From: Escherichia coli
GTDB taxonomy: Bacteria; Pseudomonadota; Gammaproteobacteria; Enterobacterales; Enterobacteriaceae
Reading direction: 5' to 3' (one strand)
Assembly (NCBI RefSeq): GCF_041886205.1
Contig: NZ_CP169029.1
DNA length: 64,000 nucleotides
This document shows positions 20,966-28,603 of the stretch, one piece after another. The notes beneath the pieces were generated by a model. That model was not told the DNA's origin, ran no database searches, and worked only from the letters and a program-made list of their open reading frames with translations. Made by a program: the position numbers and the translations under genes. Numbering within the stretch: the first letter of the stretch is position 1; the number at the start of each line of letters is the position of its first letter.

Positions 20966-21700
20966 CTAATAACCATCATTCACAATTTCCCTGCCATGTT
21001 GTTTTAACCACTGGCAGGGAGTCACTGAGTAGTATTTCCTGAAACTTAAAATAAAATACGACAGGCTGTTGTAACCACATGCCCTGGATACCACATATAT
21101 GTTACTGTTCCTGCATCTCATCAGATTTATTGCTTTTTTCATACGCACGTCTGTGATTATCCGGCTGAACCCTGTCCCTTCACTGTGTAGTTTCCTTTTA
21201 AGCTGACTGCTGCTTATGCATAACGCTGATGCAACATCTGACAGATACCATTTCTTTGCCGGCTCTGCGGCAACAATAACTTCAACACGTAACGAGTAGC
21301 TGTTCAGCCCACCGGACAATACAGGCAGCAACTGGTTTTTATCATTAAGATAATCCAGCAACACAAACAATACAGATTCATAAAGATGAGCATTCCCCTG
21401 TTGTTCCACGAGGGGCATCAGCGAGTTCAGGAAGGTACCATACACTTTCTTCCTGAAATAAGAATTTTTTCTGACGGCGATACGCAAAGCATCAGCATCC
21501 CTCAGTCTGATATACAGATAGTCACTGACGATATGACAGGGTATATCAATAAACCTTACTCCGCTCTCACACGCATCCATAAAGCATGAAATGTCATTTC
21601 TTTTTATGAGAAGGATTTCATTCTTATGAAAATCAACTTCCTCATTATGAAATGAAACACAGAGCGGCCTTAACGTGATGGCGAAGCAATACGGGAACAT
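20966..21700 (-). CDS. AraC/XylS-family transcriptional regulator (Rns/AggR-like size)
   Basis: C-terminal double HTH region ...SSQLKRKLHSEGTGFSRIITDVRMKKAINLM...SRACGYNSLSYFILSFRKYYSVTP; ATG start; AT-rich gene. Confidence 0.75.
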   Translation of the reverse strand: MFPYCFAITLRPLCVSFHNEEVDFHKNEILLIKRNDISCFMDACESGVRFIDIPCHIVSDYLYIRLRDADALRIAVRKNSYFRKKVYGTFLNSLMPLVEQQGNAHLYESVLFVLLDYLNDKNQLLPVLSGGLNSYSLRVEVIVAAEPAKKWYLSDVASALCISSSQLKRKLHSEGTGFSRIITDVRMKKAINLMRCRNSNIYVVSRACGYNSLSYFILSFRKYYSVTPCQWLKQHGREIVNDGY

Positions 21701-23194
21701 ACACTACAGGTGTAATTTATGAATACATTATGTTATGTGTGGATGCCTTACATAACATACGATCCGGTTATATTTATTCTGATAATATGTGGCACACCTG
21801 TCATCTGTGATAATATTAATGTATTGTAAACCTCATACTAATGATGACCGGGAGCAGACTGTATCCTGGTTATCATCAGGGCACATAAATGCTGCCAGCA
21901 ACCTTCGGCAGGCTTACATTGTCTGTAATCACACTCTCCGGCCCCTTTTCAGGACAAGAGTGAATTCGCCACACATTTATCCAGAACCCTGCGAGTCACT
22001 CCCGCTGCCCGTGAGTGACTGTGAAATCCTCAGTCAGTTCAGTTTAAACCGTTATTAATTATTCACAGCTATCACTATATTTCGGTGGGCTTTTCATTTT
22101 TGTGAATAACTGTTTCTCCATTTTATCTTCGGATTTCACTAAATCATCAGCGAGCTTTATCTGTTTGTATATCACATTTCCGTCACACCGGAATAAACTC
22201 ATATAAACATACCGCGACAATTCGTAATCGCTGCCCCCTGTTATTCAGCCCTCCATCTTTCAGCATAACCTGTATGAGAATCATCTTTTGTGAGTGAAAA
22301 CCGGACTTGCCAGACGGCAACAACAATAAGGAACTCACCCATTATATTAAACGCTTCATGCCCCCTTCAGTCCGGAATCACGAGAAATACATCAGCCAAT
22401 AAAATTATACCTTTTTCTTATTGCATTAAATATATGGCCATATATTAAAATCCGGACAGTCTTCTCCGGAATATTACATATCTGATAATGTCAGTTTCTT
22501 ATACCTGATGGCTGGTCATATTCTGTATGTTATTTCAGTACACATCGACAAACAACAAACTGTTTGCCGCCCGATAAATCCGGATGATATAGTAAACTAA
22601 AGAAAATGGAAGAAATAAAAGTGCGAAAATGTTCACACTTTTATAATTAAGATACCAGAAATTATCATTCAGCTGTCAATTTCTTTGAAAAACGCCGGTA
22701 ATCACCAGTCTTTACTGACAGAACCGATATGTTCCGAATGCCGGTGTTCCCTCGAGCTTCAGCAACAGCTTTCCTGTATGGCTGTGGTTTTGGTTACGTA
22801 GCCATGATACCTGAAACCATGCGCTATTCATAGATTAATAACAACTGTAATAATAGCCGGATTTTGTGTCACAGTTACGGAAGACTGCCAGAAAATACTG
22901 AGTACAGACCGGAGGAATATAATTATTCAGAATATATTCTGCTGCAGAACATCCTGTTATATCAGATGTAAATATCTGCAGAATTATACCAATATATTAT
23001 ACAGAACAGAATAAATCACATAATTTTATCCGGAATTTGCCCCCCTTAATGACTGCATTTTACTGACACATTAATATACTGCCGTTTTATTTTACATTTT
23101 AAAAACCATGCCTCAGTATAATATATGAATTAAGTCTGTTTTATACAAAACAGCCAGAGACAAGTAATCACTTATCTCCGGCTGTACCACAAAA

Positions 23195-23917
23195 TCAATA
23201 CTGGGAATTAATTACTACTTTTTCTCCGAATTTCCCATTAACAGGTAATGGGATGTAAGTTGAATTTAATGCTCTGAGAACTCTTATCCCTTCAGCATTT
23301 GCTTTTCTGGCATCAAGTATATCATTATCAGAGTCACCATAATATATGGATATATTATGTTTTTTTATATACTCAACTTTTGCATCTTTATGTGCCCCTC
23401 CTGCAAAAATAACCTTGTTTAACTTATTTGCAGGTATCTGAAAATCGTCCTGTATTGTAGCTGTTAAATCCTCCTTTCCATTAGAAGGTGCAGTTCTGCC
23501 GGTAATAAAATAAATATTATCACCTCTGCTAAGGTGTAATTTGATAAGTTCTTTGGCAGATTTTTTAGGAATAGAAAATCTGTCCCAGCCATTACTGGCC
23601 TCATCCCAGAATTGCTGATTATTTAAATAATCATCACTGTCTGGTGAATATTTTTGTTTTCCACGGAAAAATACAGGACTGGAAAACAGCACAGTATCAT
23701 CTATATCAAAGCCAACGCTTATCGGTTTCTTATTTTCCAGACTCCTGGCAATCTGCTCAACTGAAACCCAGTGAACAGGATACTGATAAGTCAGTTGTGC
23801 CAGTGTGGCTCCTTGTTGCTCAACTCCCCTGTCCGGAGAAGCGGCATTTACTGCAGATATCACGGATAAAAGACCTGTAGCAATCATTATGCAGATACTT
23901 TTCATTTTTCTATTCAT
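23195..23917 (-). CDS. Class B acid phosphatase (HAD superfamily, AphA-like), secreted
   Basis: Signal peptide, DDDD-type motifs GFDIDDTVLF and YGDSDNDI. Confidence 0.7.
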   Translation of the reverse strand: MNRKMKSICIMIATGLLSVISAVNAASPDRGVEQQGATLAQLTYQYPVHWVSVEQIARSLENKKPISVGFDIDDTVLFSSPVFFRGKQKYSPDSDDYLNNQQFWDEASNGWDRFSIPKKSAKELIKLHLSRGDNIYFITGRTAPSNGKEDLTATIQDDFQIPANKLNKVIFAGGAHKDAKVEYIKKHNISIYYGDSDNDILDARKANAEGIRVLRALNSTYIPLPVNGKFGEKVVINSQY

Positions 23918-27255: not shown

Positions 27256-27514
27256 ATATCAATACGGTTCTAGTGAGCTGCTTACATTTAATCACTATTT
27301 TTTGCGTTAAAAACCACTCTATCCTCTTGGTATAAAAATGGGCGCAACAAAGCGCCCAAACAACAGAGTTTCTAAAATAAATAAAAGGTAATAAATAACA
27401 TGAAGTTAAATTAAGAAGAGGCAAGTTTATTGCCTCTTCAAAGGTAGCATGAGGGTGCTACCTATATGCAGGCAGTGACATCACTCCCTTCCCGCATATT
27501 CTCACCTACCAAAA

Positions 27515-28603
27515 TTAGAACTGGTAGGTCATACCAACAGCAACGATATCGTCAGTGCTTATACCGAGTGCTTTAGTGAAGTCGTTTTTGTCAAGCAGGT
27601 TGATTTTGTAATCAACGAAAGTAGACATATTTTTGTTGAAGTAATAGGTTGCACCTACATCAACATATTTGACTAAGTCCTGATCGCCCCATACTCCAAG
27701 ATCCTTACCTTTAGATTGCAGGTAAGCAACGGACGGACGCAGACCAAAATCGAACTGATATTGTGCAACAGCTTCAAAGTTCTGAGCTTTATTAGCAACG
27801 AAGTGATCAGCAAATACAGTCATATTCTGAGTTTCAGAATAGGTAGTGGCCAGGTAAATGTTATTAGCGTCATATTTCAGACCTGCGGCCCAAACTTCTG
27901 CATTTTTACCGGAAGCAAATACTTCAGGAAGAACTTTCCCTGCATTAACTTGAGTGTCGGTACGATCAGATTTCGCATAAGTTGCACCAATACCAAATCC
28001 TTCGTATTCATAGGTAGCAGAGAAACCGAAGCCATCACCATTAGCTTCAGTTACGTCAGTTCGGTCATTTTTACCCTGATACTGAGCAGCAAAGTTCAGA
28101 CCATCAACCAGACCAAAGAAGTCGTTGTTACGATAGGTTGCAACACCAGTGGTGCGACCAGTCATGAACACATCTGTTTGGGTCCAGGTATCGCCACCGA
28201 ATTCTGGCAGAACGTCGGTCCATGCACCGATATCGTATGCTACACCGTAGTTACGGCCATAATCGATGGAGCCGTAGTCACCGAATTTCAGGCCAGCGAA
28301 GGCAAGACGGGTTTTATCTTTGGAAGAACCTTGAGATTCAGCACGGTTGCCTTTGAAGTCATATTCCCACTGACCGAAACCAGTCAGTTGATCGTTGATT
28401 TGGGTTTCACCTTTAAAGCCCAGACGAGCATAAGTAGTGTCACCATCATCTGCATCGTTAGAGGAGAAGTAGTGCTTAGCATTAACTTTTCCGTACAGAT
28501 CCAGTTTGTTACCGTCTTTGTTATAGATTTCTGCAGCTTGAGCAGACACTGCCATCAGAACAGATGCTGCAACCACAGAAAGTGCCACTGTAATTTTTTT
28601 CAT
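27515..28603 (-). CDS. General porin of the OmpC/OmpF/PhoE (GBP) family
   Basis: Signal peptide [39 protein letters not shown] start of mature porin, C-terminal ...VAVGMTYQF; start at ATG 28603 rather than the longer track ORF. Confidence 0.85.

Follow-up and report, generated by a model that had tools for sequence, protein, structure and literature searches.

Known AraC-type regulators of the GadX/Rns/ToxT-like kind counteract H-NS at AT-rich promoters, and H-NS targets AT-rich foreign DNA. The nmpC porin gene is reportedly followed by an sRNA region, IpeX, and the Salmonella porin OmpD, which is related to the porin described here, is reported to be cAMP-CRP-dependent. AphA has been described as a periplasmic phosphatase with relaxed substrate specificity (PMC10715179). 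The locus described here holds an AraC-type regulator, an aphA gene and a porin gene on one strand at positions 20,966 to 28,603 of the window, a stretch of 64,000 nucleotides of Escherichia coli DNA (contig NZ_CP169029.1, assembly GCF_041886205.1). An earlier note on this DNA had called the same three ORFs, and all of its calls and coordinates are correct (Table 1).

The regulator, aphA and porin genes are real, AT-rich and acquired, but it is highly probable that they are three unrelated island pieces, juxtaposed by IS events and transcribed independently of one another.

Table 1. Features of the regulator–aphA–porin interval and its borders, with positions in the window.
Feature	Position	Strand	Remarks
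Perfect CRP-consensus palindrome, TGTGATATATTTCACA	20098..20113	.	Gene-free DNA downstream of the AraC gene
AraC-family regulator, 244 aa	20966-21700	-	Profile matches
AT-rich gene-free stretch, 1.5 kb	21701..23194	.	GC 37.8%
Decayed yfdX remnant with in-frame stops	22014..22214	-	tblastn and synteny
CRP-like palindrome	22622..22637	.	One mismatch
Terminator-like hairpin	23150..23185	-	16 pairs, then a T run; directly after the aphA stop codon
AphA class B acid phosphatase, 240 aa	23195-23917	-	Profile matches
Putative aphA control region	23993..24083	-	Consensus matches only
CRP-like site	24068..24083		One mismatch; ~158 nt upstream of the aphA ATG
IS200/IS605-family tnpA fragment	24225..24542	-	ORF 24173-24439, weak Y1_Tnp match
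ISCro1 (IS66 family), recombinant copy	24587..27285	+	DNA identity 99.3-99.4%
ISCro1 tnpA	24640-25317		
ISCro1 tnpB	25317-25664		
ISCro1 tnpC	25684-27255		
Structured porin 3' region	27331..27514	-	Homologous to the nmpC-quuD spacer of DLP12-type prophages
OmpC-type porin, 362 aa including signal peptide	27515-28603	-	Profile matches
Porin 5' region	28604..28745	-	Homologous to the nmpC upstream region
Perfect CRP-consensus palindrome	28716-28731		Inside a 21-nt inverted repeat, ~120 nt upstream of the porin ATG

Island setting and base composition

The core chromosome makes up only positions ~1–4400 of the window and the remainder is a mosaic island, where the GC content is under 42% in 22% of 500-bp windows. 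The interval is part of this chromosomal E. coli genomic island, which has an adjoining integrase at 4513–5715. The GC content of the interval is 39.4% once the IS is removed, compared with 49.0% for the window, and 44.9% with the IS included. The individual genes have GC contents of 41.6% (AraC gene, GC3 0.47), 36.8% (aphA, GC3 0.28) and 43.6% (porin gene, GC3 0.38), while GC3 is 0.56–0.68 in other island genes and 0.49–0.60 in the core ORFs at the start of the window. The contiguous tract from 19994 to 24586, at 39.1% GC, falls at the 0.5th percentile among windows of equal length.

These GC and GC3 values bear out the AT-richness that the earlier note had claimed for the genes and spacers. 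Its view that the DNA was horizontally acquired likewise holds, the DNA being compositionally foreign and lying within a mobile-element-rich island. The contrast it drew with the "backbone" is correct as to AT-richness, but the comparator is mostly island rather than backbone. It had also described the genes as parted by AT-rich non-coding DNA, which is the case at 21701–23194 but not between aphA and the porin gene, because ISCro1 (24587–27285, 2.7 kb, three ORFs, GC 54.8%) fills that gap and ~35% of the interval. With a GC content well below the host average, the tract is of the kind that H-NS is known to target, and it may be bound by H-NS.

The AraC-type regulator

The regulator has the C-terminal double helix-turn-helix of the AraC/XylS family at residues 157–234 (PF12833, 53.4 bits with a cut-off of 33.6; PF00165, 45.3 bits with a cut-off of 26.6). 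Among curated models it matches HilD, GadX and YdeO best, the YdeO alignment spanning nearly the full length, and among solved structures its closest relatives are the GadX DNA-binding domain and Rns. Identity with HilD, GadX or YdeO itself was rejected, as the NCBIfam equivalog scores of 88–100 bits are far under the cut-offs of 348–500 (HilD 99.8 vs 354, GadX 96.5 vs 500, YdeO 87.9 vs 348). The earlier note called the regulator Rns/AggR-sized. The protein does group with GadX, YdeO, HilD, Rns and ToxT within the AraC family, but it is no closer to Rns, with whose chains it aligns over residues 76–232 (E ~1e-15), than to GadX.

Homologues of the regulator are rare, being present in 37 of 5426 complete genomes, mostly of bovine E. 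coli, and every family member found is 244 aa long and restricted to E. coli. These relatives adjoin yfdX/ibrAB/F17 or a Csa-domain gene, or sit between cnf and cdtABC, and thus do occupy virulence contexts, as had been supposed. In the window no fimbrial or toxin operon adjoins the regulator, and ibrAB, perC and the F17, cnf and cdt genes are absent. None of the homologues with 72–84% identity stands beside aphA or a porin gene at the loci compared. By blastn, DNA homology between regulator loci ends at the borders of the CDS; a gene-sized mobile cassette was considered on this ground, and the lack of flank homology is read instead as divergence. The sister genome JML285 has an identical CDS, whose 174-aa annotation there suggested a truncated protein; truncation was rejected, since the DNA is the same and the start call alone differs. 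Among literature touching pVir68, or cnf2 together with AraC, no title or abstract dealing with this regulator was found.

The gene-free stretch and the yfdX remnant

The stretch between the regulator and aphA contains no ORF above 89 aa and no Pfam match. Its DNA has no match in 5426 E. coli genomes except in JML285, and none in 72,556 plasmids. A decayed remnant within it corresponds to YfdX residues 58–123 at 37% identity, with a tblastn score of 37.7 bits (none of 200 shuffles scored above 23.5 bits), and intact or broken yfdX genes are found upstream of AraC homologues elsewhere in the matching position and on the matching strand. Pfam searching missed the family in this remnant, and the assignment therefore depends on tblastn and synteny. 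Searches by tblastn for remnants of other genes of the related loci (IbrA, IbrB, PerC, the Csa-domain protein, the alpha/beta-hydrolase, the OmpA-family protein and YadA) gave none in the gene-free DNA. Rfam models gave no hit across the whole window at gathering thresholds and only sub-threshold matches at lax ones, with the miRNA matches falling on a palindrome; a tRNA scan found none.

The decay of yfdX, the abundance of IS fragments and an AT-rich composition typical of H-NS targets could suggest that the whole tract is silent, decaying cargo without function. This is unlikely, however, given that all three ORFs run to full length and keep their motifs, that the exact proteins occur on many contigs (the regulator on 211, AphA on 63 as a 240-aa call plus 206 as a 236-aa call, and the porin on 334) and that the regulator CDS is unchanged in JML285. 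In the assemblies read, none of the three ORFs is broken, which means that they are maintained rather than junk.

The accessory aphA gene and its distance from the regulator

The aphA product matches the class B acid phosphatase model TIGR01672 with 287.2 bits (cut-off 195.8) over protein residues 1–240 and model positions 1–237. Its translation shows an N-terminal signal sequence together with FDIDDT (DxDxT) and GDSDND motifs, and the protein is predicted to be a class B acid phosphatase of the periplasm. In the region scanned for promoters, the sequence most like a sigma-70 site (10/12) lies at 24022–23993, in the putative aphA control region. Promoter-like sites are no commoner in the scan than in shuffles (20 observed vs 18.9), so individual promoter calls are mere suggestions.

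In every assembly with the exact regulator allele, aphA lies 1495 bp from the regulator on the same strand, and because this linkage is constant within the lineage, a functional tie between the two is conceivable. The regulator and aphA would then form a pair in which the first controls the second, with the porin unrelated. The spacing is kept with or without ISCro1 and with or without the adhesin, and over the whole block the window and JML285 hardly differ in sequence. Within a single near-clonal block, however, linkage is no argument for function. The regulator homologues at 72–84% identity have no aphA nearby, the plasmid relatives of aphA stand alone beside IncFII repA with no AraC gene in the vicinity, and in the window the yfdX pseudogene lies between the two genes. 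Such a pair is accordingly judged improbable, and separate origins for the regulator and aphA are preferred.

ISCro1 and its three-state history

The element between aphA and the porin gene belongs to the IS66 family, with tnpA, tnpB and tnpC in order and terminal inverted repeats beginning GTAA. An 8-bp target duplication is expected of ISCro1, but the window copy is flanked by AGTTTATC on the left and ATTTAATC on the right, without a direct duplication, while the 8-bp duplication AGTTTATC does flank the parental ISCro1 in JML285. The duplication is missing from the window copy because that copy is a recombinant of two, with the crossover mapped to 27128–27161. Compared with the full JML285 copy there are 0 mismatches up to 27161 and 15 beyond, and compared with the IS66 3' remnant there are 8 before 27128 and 0 after.

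The other states of the site are preserved in related genomes. Assemblies L022 and L024 carry the empty site, GCCATGTC-AGTTTATC-TCCTTTT. JML285 and L020 carry the full ISCro1 between the two copies of AGTTTATC; beyond it lie the OmpA and YadA genes, a fragment of a group II intron and the IS66 3' remnant. The window is the 4.8-kb deletion form: only one of the 5426 complete genomes shares the region, and it has 4.8 kb extra at this point. Other members of the lineage do not have aphA and the porin gene adjacent. The IS history is thus shown directly by the genome series, and it was a recent deletion mediated by IS66 that made aphA and the porin gene neighbours. ISCro1 inserted upstream of aphA, duplicating AGTTTATC, and then recombined with the 3' remnant of a second IS66-family copy beside the porin gene. 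The recombination deleted the 4.8 kb holding the OmpA-family gene and the YadA-type adhesin gene, placing the porin gene no more than 3.6 kb from aphA.

The porin gene and its prophage-derived flanks

The porin matches PF00267 with 520.9 bits and the OmpC subfamily model NF007841 with 527 bits (cut-off 484), and it scores below the PhoE and OmpF equivalog cut-offs, which places it among the general porins of the OmpC subfamily (NmpC/Lc type). Its gene is 93–96% identical in DNA to the porin genes found between quuD and essD in DLP12-type prophages. It is bracketed by ISCro1 and by IS91/IS21/IS630 fragments. The possibility that it is a lambdoid prophage moron still in place, between the Q antiterminator and lysis genes, was discarded, as its flanks are IS debris.

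Strong terminator-like hairpins at 27439–27415 and 27358–27339 in the porin 3' region are conserved with respect to the nmpC-quuD spacer, with three compensatory pairs in one stem, and the region is called IpeX-like on account of this homology. No Rfam family reaches threshold in it. A match to GcvB (25.9 bits, threshold 42) was taken as a chance hairpin resemblance. By its sequence, the porin unit is assigned as an NmpC/Lc-type unit that came from a lambdoid prophage with its own 5' and 3' regions.

Probably three pieces rather than one module

The earlier note had read the three genes as a regulated surface or virulence module. On such a reading, the AraC-type protein would be the dedicated activator of aphA and the porin gene, derepressing DNA silenced by H-NS. 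The regulator does fall in the GadX/Rns/ToxT-like part of its family and has relatives on virulence plasmids and islands, and the three genes are AT-rich, lie on one strand and encode exported proteins beside the regulator. The proposal nonetheless fails at several points and is very unlikely to be correct. The adjacency of the porin gene is an artefact of the recent deletion and is absent from sister genomes, the control regions of the porin gene are prophage-derived and the ancestral neighbour of the regulator is yfdX. The three genes form neither an operon nor a co-inherited cassette, with ISCro1, the IS200 fragment and terminator-like hairpins lying between them, and the loci compared show no linkage between a more distant homologue of one gene and either of the others.

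The preferred reading of three separate pieces can be set out as follows. The first unit would be the relic of a yfdX and AraC-type pair, in which yfdX has decayed to ~200 bp and the intact regulator is now an orphan. The second would be an accessory unit of one gene, aphA, which has a promoter-like region of its own and ends in a strong terminator, and the third an nmpC/lc-type porin gene torn from a lambdoid prophage, keeping its 5' control region and its structured IpeX-like 3' RNA region. Each unit is probably expressed under the control of its own signals together with global factors (H-NS on the AT-rich DNA, possibly cAMP-CRP). The AraC protein, if it acts at all, would most likely do so in trans.

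CRP-consensus palindromes

Four CRP-consensus-like sites are concentrated in this part of the window, a hint of some shared regulatory input. Two are perfect matches to TGTGA-N6-TCACA and two have one mismatch; all lie in 6.5 kb of AT-rich non-IS DNA, the motif having been noticed post hoc. By expectation there would be 0.01 perfect and 0.34 one-mismatch sites, and none of 1000 shuffles reached the observed number. A 27-nt match overlapping the palindrome at 20098–20113 adjoins the AraC homologue in CFS3273. No documentation of CRP control was found in literature on OmpD or AphA with CRP.

These sites raise the possibility, held tentatively, that the independent units share a global input, with cAMP-CRP activating the porin gene, aphA and perhaps unannotated transcripts, so that the tract would be under catabolite rather than AraC control. 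Such an input is compatible with three independently transcribed pieces. The enrichment over expectation and shuffles is consistent with it, as are the reported dependence of OmpD on cAMP-CRP and the candidate site upstream of aphA. The site upstream of the porin gene lies in a conserved region, and prophage nmpC loci retain its TCACA half. However, the motif was picked after the fact, and two of the four sites adjoin no recognisable gene. A broader and speculative proposal, which is unlikely, is that the uncharacterised 244-aa protein represents a rare, mostly ruminant-associated GadX/Rns-like family that travels with virulence DNA and would lift the silencing of AT-rich island genes in trans, aphA and the porin gene among them, while the cluster of CRP sites would link the island to catabolite control.

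Comparison with known systems

The locus illustrates that gene adjacency within IS-rich islands can be a single recombination event old, and the position of a regulator beside genes for exported proteins is therefore no evidence of a regulon. It also offers a cleanly resolved three-step IS66 history, from empty site to insertion to a deletion that removed an adhesin locus, as well as a case of a prophage porin unit that moved together with its own control RNA region. Through its regulator it also draws attention to an AraC family that is small, unstudied and associated with bovine necrotoxigenic and F17-type E. coli.

The regulator shares the C-terminal double helix-turn-helix and a similar size with the GadX/YdeO/HilD/Rns-type activators, but it is only ~30% identical to GadW and the like and forms its own small family confined to E. 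coli. Its closest homologues, at 79–84% DNA identity, are in CFS3273-type islands of bovine E. coli (yfdX-AraC-ibrAB-perC/F17) and on pVir-like cnf/cdt plasmids. The order of yfdX upstream of the regulator on the same strand is common to these loci and the window, and a pair of OmpA-family and YadA-type adhesin genes is found nearby in L003 and in JML285. Unlike these loci, the window keeps yfdX only as a remnant and has aphA instead. The window aphA is a second, acquired copy of the gene for AphA, the class B non-specific acid phosphatase of Enterobacteriaceae, and its product is only ~50% identical to the housekeeping enzyme; its nearest relatives, at 63–67% identity, are the AphA of Edwardsiella and the AphA encoded on E. 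coli IncFII plasmids. The porin shares a homologous CDS, 5' region and hairpin-rich 3' region with the NmpC/Lc locus of DLP12-type prophages, but no prophage genes flank it, and the CRP palindrome that is perfect in the window is represented in the prophage copies by a single half-site (TCACA). Taken as a whole, the interval is an ordinary island mosaic.

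Gene content, composition and island setting

The product of the first of the three genes is 244 aa long and has an AraC-type double helix-turn-helix, the second encodes AphA, an acid phosphatase of class B, identified by an equivalog model (287 bits, cut-off 196), and the third encodes a porin of the OmpC subfamily. The positions that the earlier note had given for all three ORFs are exact, and the GC and GC3 profile confirms that the genes and their spacers differ from the window as a whole (Table). Other genes of the island have GC3 values of 0.56–0.68, and 19994–24586 is the most AT-rich tract of that length in the window (0.5th percentile). 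H-NS is known to silence foreign DNA of such composition, and on the basis of this difference the DNA was rightly described as foreign and of that kind. The genes are separated by AT-rich spacers, as proposed, but also by a 2.7-kb ISCro1 element that had been overlooked.

Features of the window and their base composition
Feature	Position (strand)	GC	GC3
Integrase ORF	4513–5715		
GC-rich module	6000–13791		
Truncated sulfatase gene	14110–14754 (-)		
ISEc8-like IS66 element	17127–19460 (-)		
CRP-consensus-like palindrome	20098–20113		
AraC-type regulator gene	20966–21700 (-)	41.6%	0.47
Decayed yfdX fragment	22014–22214		
CRP-consensus-like palindrome	22622–22637		
Patch variable against JML285	23040–23126		
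aphA	23195–23917 (-)	36.8%	0.28
CRP-consensus-like palindrome	24068–24083		
ISCro1 (IS66 family)	24587–27285	55%	
Porin 3' region	27331–27514 (-)		
Porin gene	27515–28603 (-)	43.6%	0.38
CRP-consensus-like palindrome	28716–28731		
Catalase-peroxidase and cytochrome b562 genes	30654–33313 (-)		
3259-aa and 588-aa ORFs	48361–59919 (-)		
Spacers		37–38%	
Whole window		49.0%	

Core chromosome of E. coli, with ~97.5% identity to most genomes, makes up the initial ~4.4 kb of the window (glnH, rhtA, ompX, opgE). It is followed by the integrase ORF, beyond which the window is a mosaic island with a per-kb GC content of 29% to 60%. The region of the interval was found in one of 5426 complete RefSeq E. 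coli genomes, that of the sister strain JML285, where it is 4.8 kb longer; the GenBank chromosome CP057953 has the arrangement of the window at 99.9% identity. The interval is ordinary island mosaic and is annotated already.

The GC-rich module at the start of the island encodes a response regulator, a MASE1 histidine kinase, a UhpC-like sensor and an ABC transporter with an FbpC-like ATPase, and looks like a sugar-phosphate uptake system. The sulfatase, truncated in the window, has its full 560 aa in draft assemblies L022 and L024, where no ISEc8 genes are called. The 3259-aa ORF, followed by the 588-aa ORF with small ORFs downstream, may belong to a candidate CdiA/CdiB-type system; a contact-dependent growth inhibition immunity protein is annotated elsewhere in the JML285 island.

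Origin of the porin junction

JML285 has a complete ISCro1 upstream of aphA, with an 8-bp direct duplication, AGTTTATC, on both sides of the element; next come, in order, an OmpA-family gene, a YadA-type adhesin gene, a group II intron fragment, an IS66-family remnant consisting of the last ~220 bp of another copy, and the porin gene. The uninterrupted target (...GCCATGTCAGTTTATCTCCTTTT...) is present in two draft assemblies, in which the OmpA-family gene directly adjoins aphA. The ISCro1 of the window is flanked by AGTTTATC on the left and by ATTTAATC, the flank of the JML285 remnant, on the right. Compared with the full JML285 copy it shows no differences up to 27161 and 15 differing sites beyond, whereas compared with the remnant it has 8 differing sites before 27128 and none after.

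This switch of flanks, together with the crossover in the mismatches, identifies the window as the product of homologous recombination between two IS copies. The recombination removed the adhesin locus and brought the porin next to aphA, the sequence of states being empty site, insertion and deletion. Since the porin adjacency is a single recombination event old, and the three genes are probably separate acquisitions, each with separate signals, the AraC-regulated surface or virulence module proposed in the earlier note is not supported, and the cassette does not constitute a real unit.

The AraC-type regulator

The predicted 244 aa are taken as the true length of the regulator because all relatives are 244 aa and the alignment to YdeO is nearly full-length. 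The best equivalog scores are to HilD, GadX and YdeO, all far under the cut-offs, and the best solved-structure matches are the GadX DNA-binding domain and Rns. In line with the earlier note, which had described an Rns/AggR-sized regulator, these scores place it with the GadX/Rns type, and its relatives elsewhere have virulence-associated neighbours. The family is small, with E. coli as the sole host found, and is present in 37 of 5426 complete genomes, mostly from cattle and evenly split between chromosome and plasmid. Relatives occupy three other contexts: with yfdX upstream, ibrAB-perC downstream and F17 fimbrial genes adjoining; in the interval from a CNF toxin gene to cdtABC; and with a broken yfdX and also a Csa-domain gene as neighbours. 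DNA similarity of the regulator loci stops at the CDS borders.

The yfdX fragment upstream of the regulator has the expected place and strand and scores 37.7 bits, with none of 200 shuffles above 23.5 bits. The rest of this gene-free stretch (~1.3 kb) gave no matches in DNA searches of plasmids and of E. coli genomes other than JML285 or in tblastn with related-locus proteins. The distance between the regulator and aphA is constant at 1495 bp within the lineage, and the two were not found together outside it. On the pVir-like contigs L004–L008 (920–11375), a 74%-identical homologue stands alone in ~5 kb of mostly gene-free DNA, with a CNF toxin gene (1014 aa) on one side and cdtABC on the other; none of the titles and abstracts listed in literature searches concerned this homologue.

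CRP-consensus palindromes

Upstream of the porin, the inverted repeat matches the CRP consensus TGTGA-N6-TCACA without a mismatch, and another CRP-like palindrome lies upstream of aphA. Two perfect and two one-mismatch sites, and no others, occur in the whole 64-kb window. All four are consensus matches to a motif recognised post hoc and fall within the 6.5 kb of AT-rich DNA outside the IS, for which the expected numbers are 0.01 (perfect) and 0.34 (one mismatch); none of 1000 shuffles attained these numbers. For any shared control, cAMP-CRP would be a more concrete candidate than the AraC protein.

The aphA and porin units

The scanned region has its best promoter-like match 76 nt upstream of the aphA ATG, an IS200-family tnpA fragment is located farther upstream, and directly after the stop codon comes a hairpin of 16 pairs with a run of Ts. 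Just downstream of this terminator-like hairpin is the sole patch across 19461–24586 that varies between the window and JML285: the C-tract length differs, and where JML285 has a segment of ~54 bp the window has one of ~20 bp. The protein is only ~50% identical to housekeeping AphA, but 63–67% identical to AphA of Edwardsiella and of E. coli IncFII plasmids, where it is found by itself, with the replication region on one side and hok on the other.

The closest relatives of the porin gene (93–96% DNA identity) are porins between quuD (Q antiterminator gene) and essD (lysis gene) in DLP12-type lambdoid prophages, including nmpC of K-12 derivatives, which is truncated by IS5. The homology also covers ~120 nt ahead of the ATG and ~185 nt beyond the stop codon. 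With the nmpC-quuD spacer as its homologue, the porin 3' region folds into conserved hairpins, with three compensatory changes in one stem among six sequences compared. The IpeX sRNA, reportedly an inhibitor of OmpC and OmpF, is encoded at this position, directly downstream of an nmpC-type porin. By homology and folding, the region probably encodes an IpeX-like sRNA carried along with the porin. IpeX is counted among the ompC-targeting sRNAs (PMC3333887).

Across IS debris from the porin lies an AT-rich gene pair: one gene (42% GC) encodes a KatG/KatP-like catalase-peroxidase whose N-terminus has a hydrophobic, signal-like stretch, the other (31.5% GC) a cytochrome b562. The porin unit of the window resembles the DLP12-type prophage locus in its CDS and its 5' and 3' regions, but unlike that locus it has no prophage neighbours and is bordered by IS debris on both sides.
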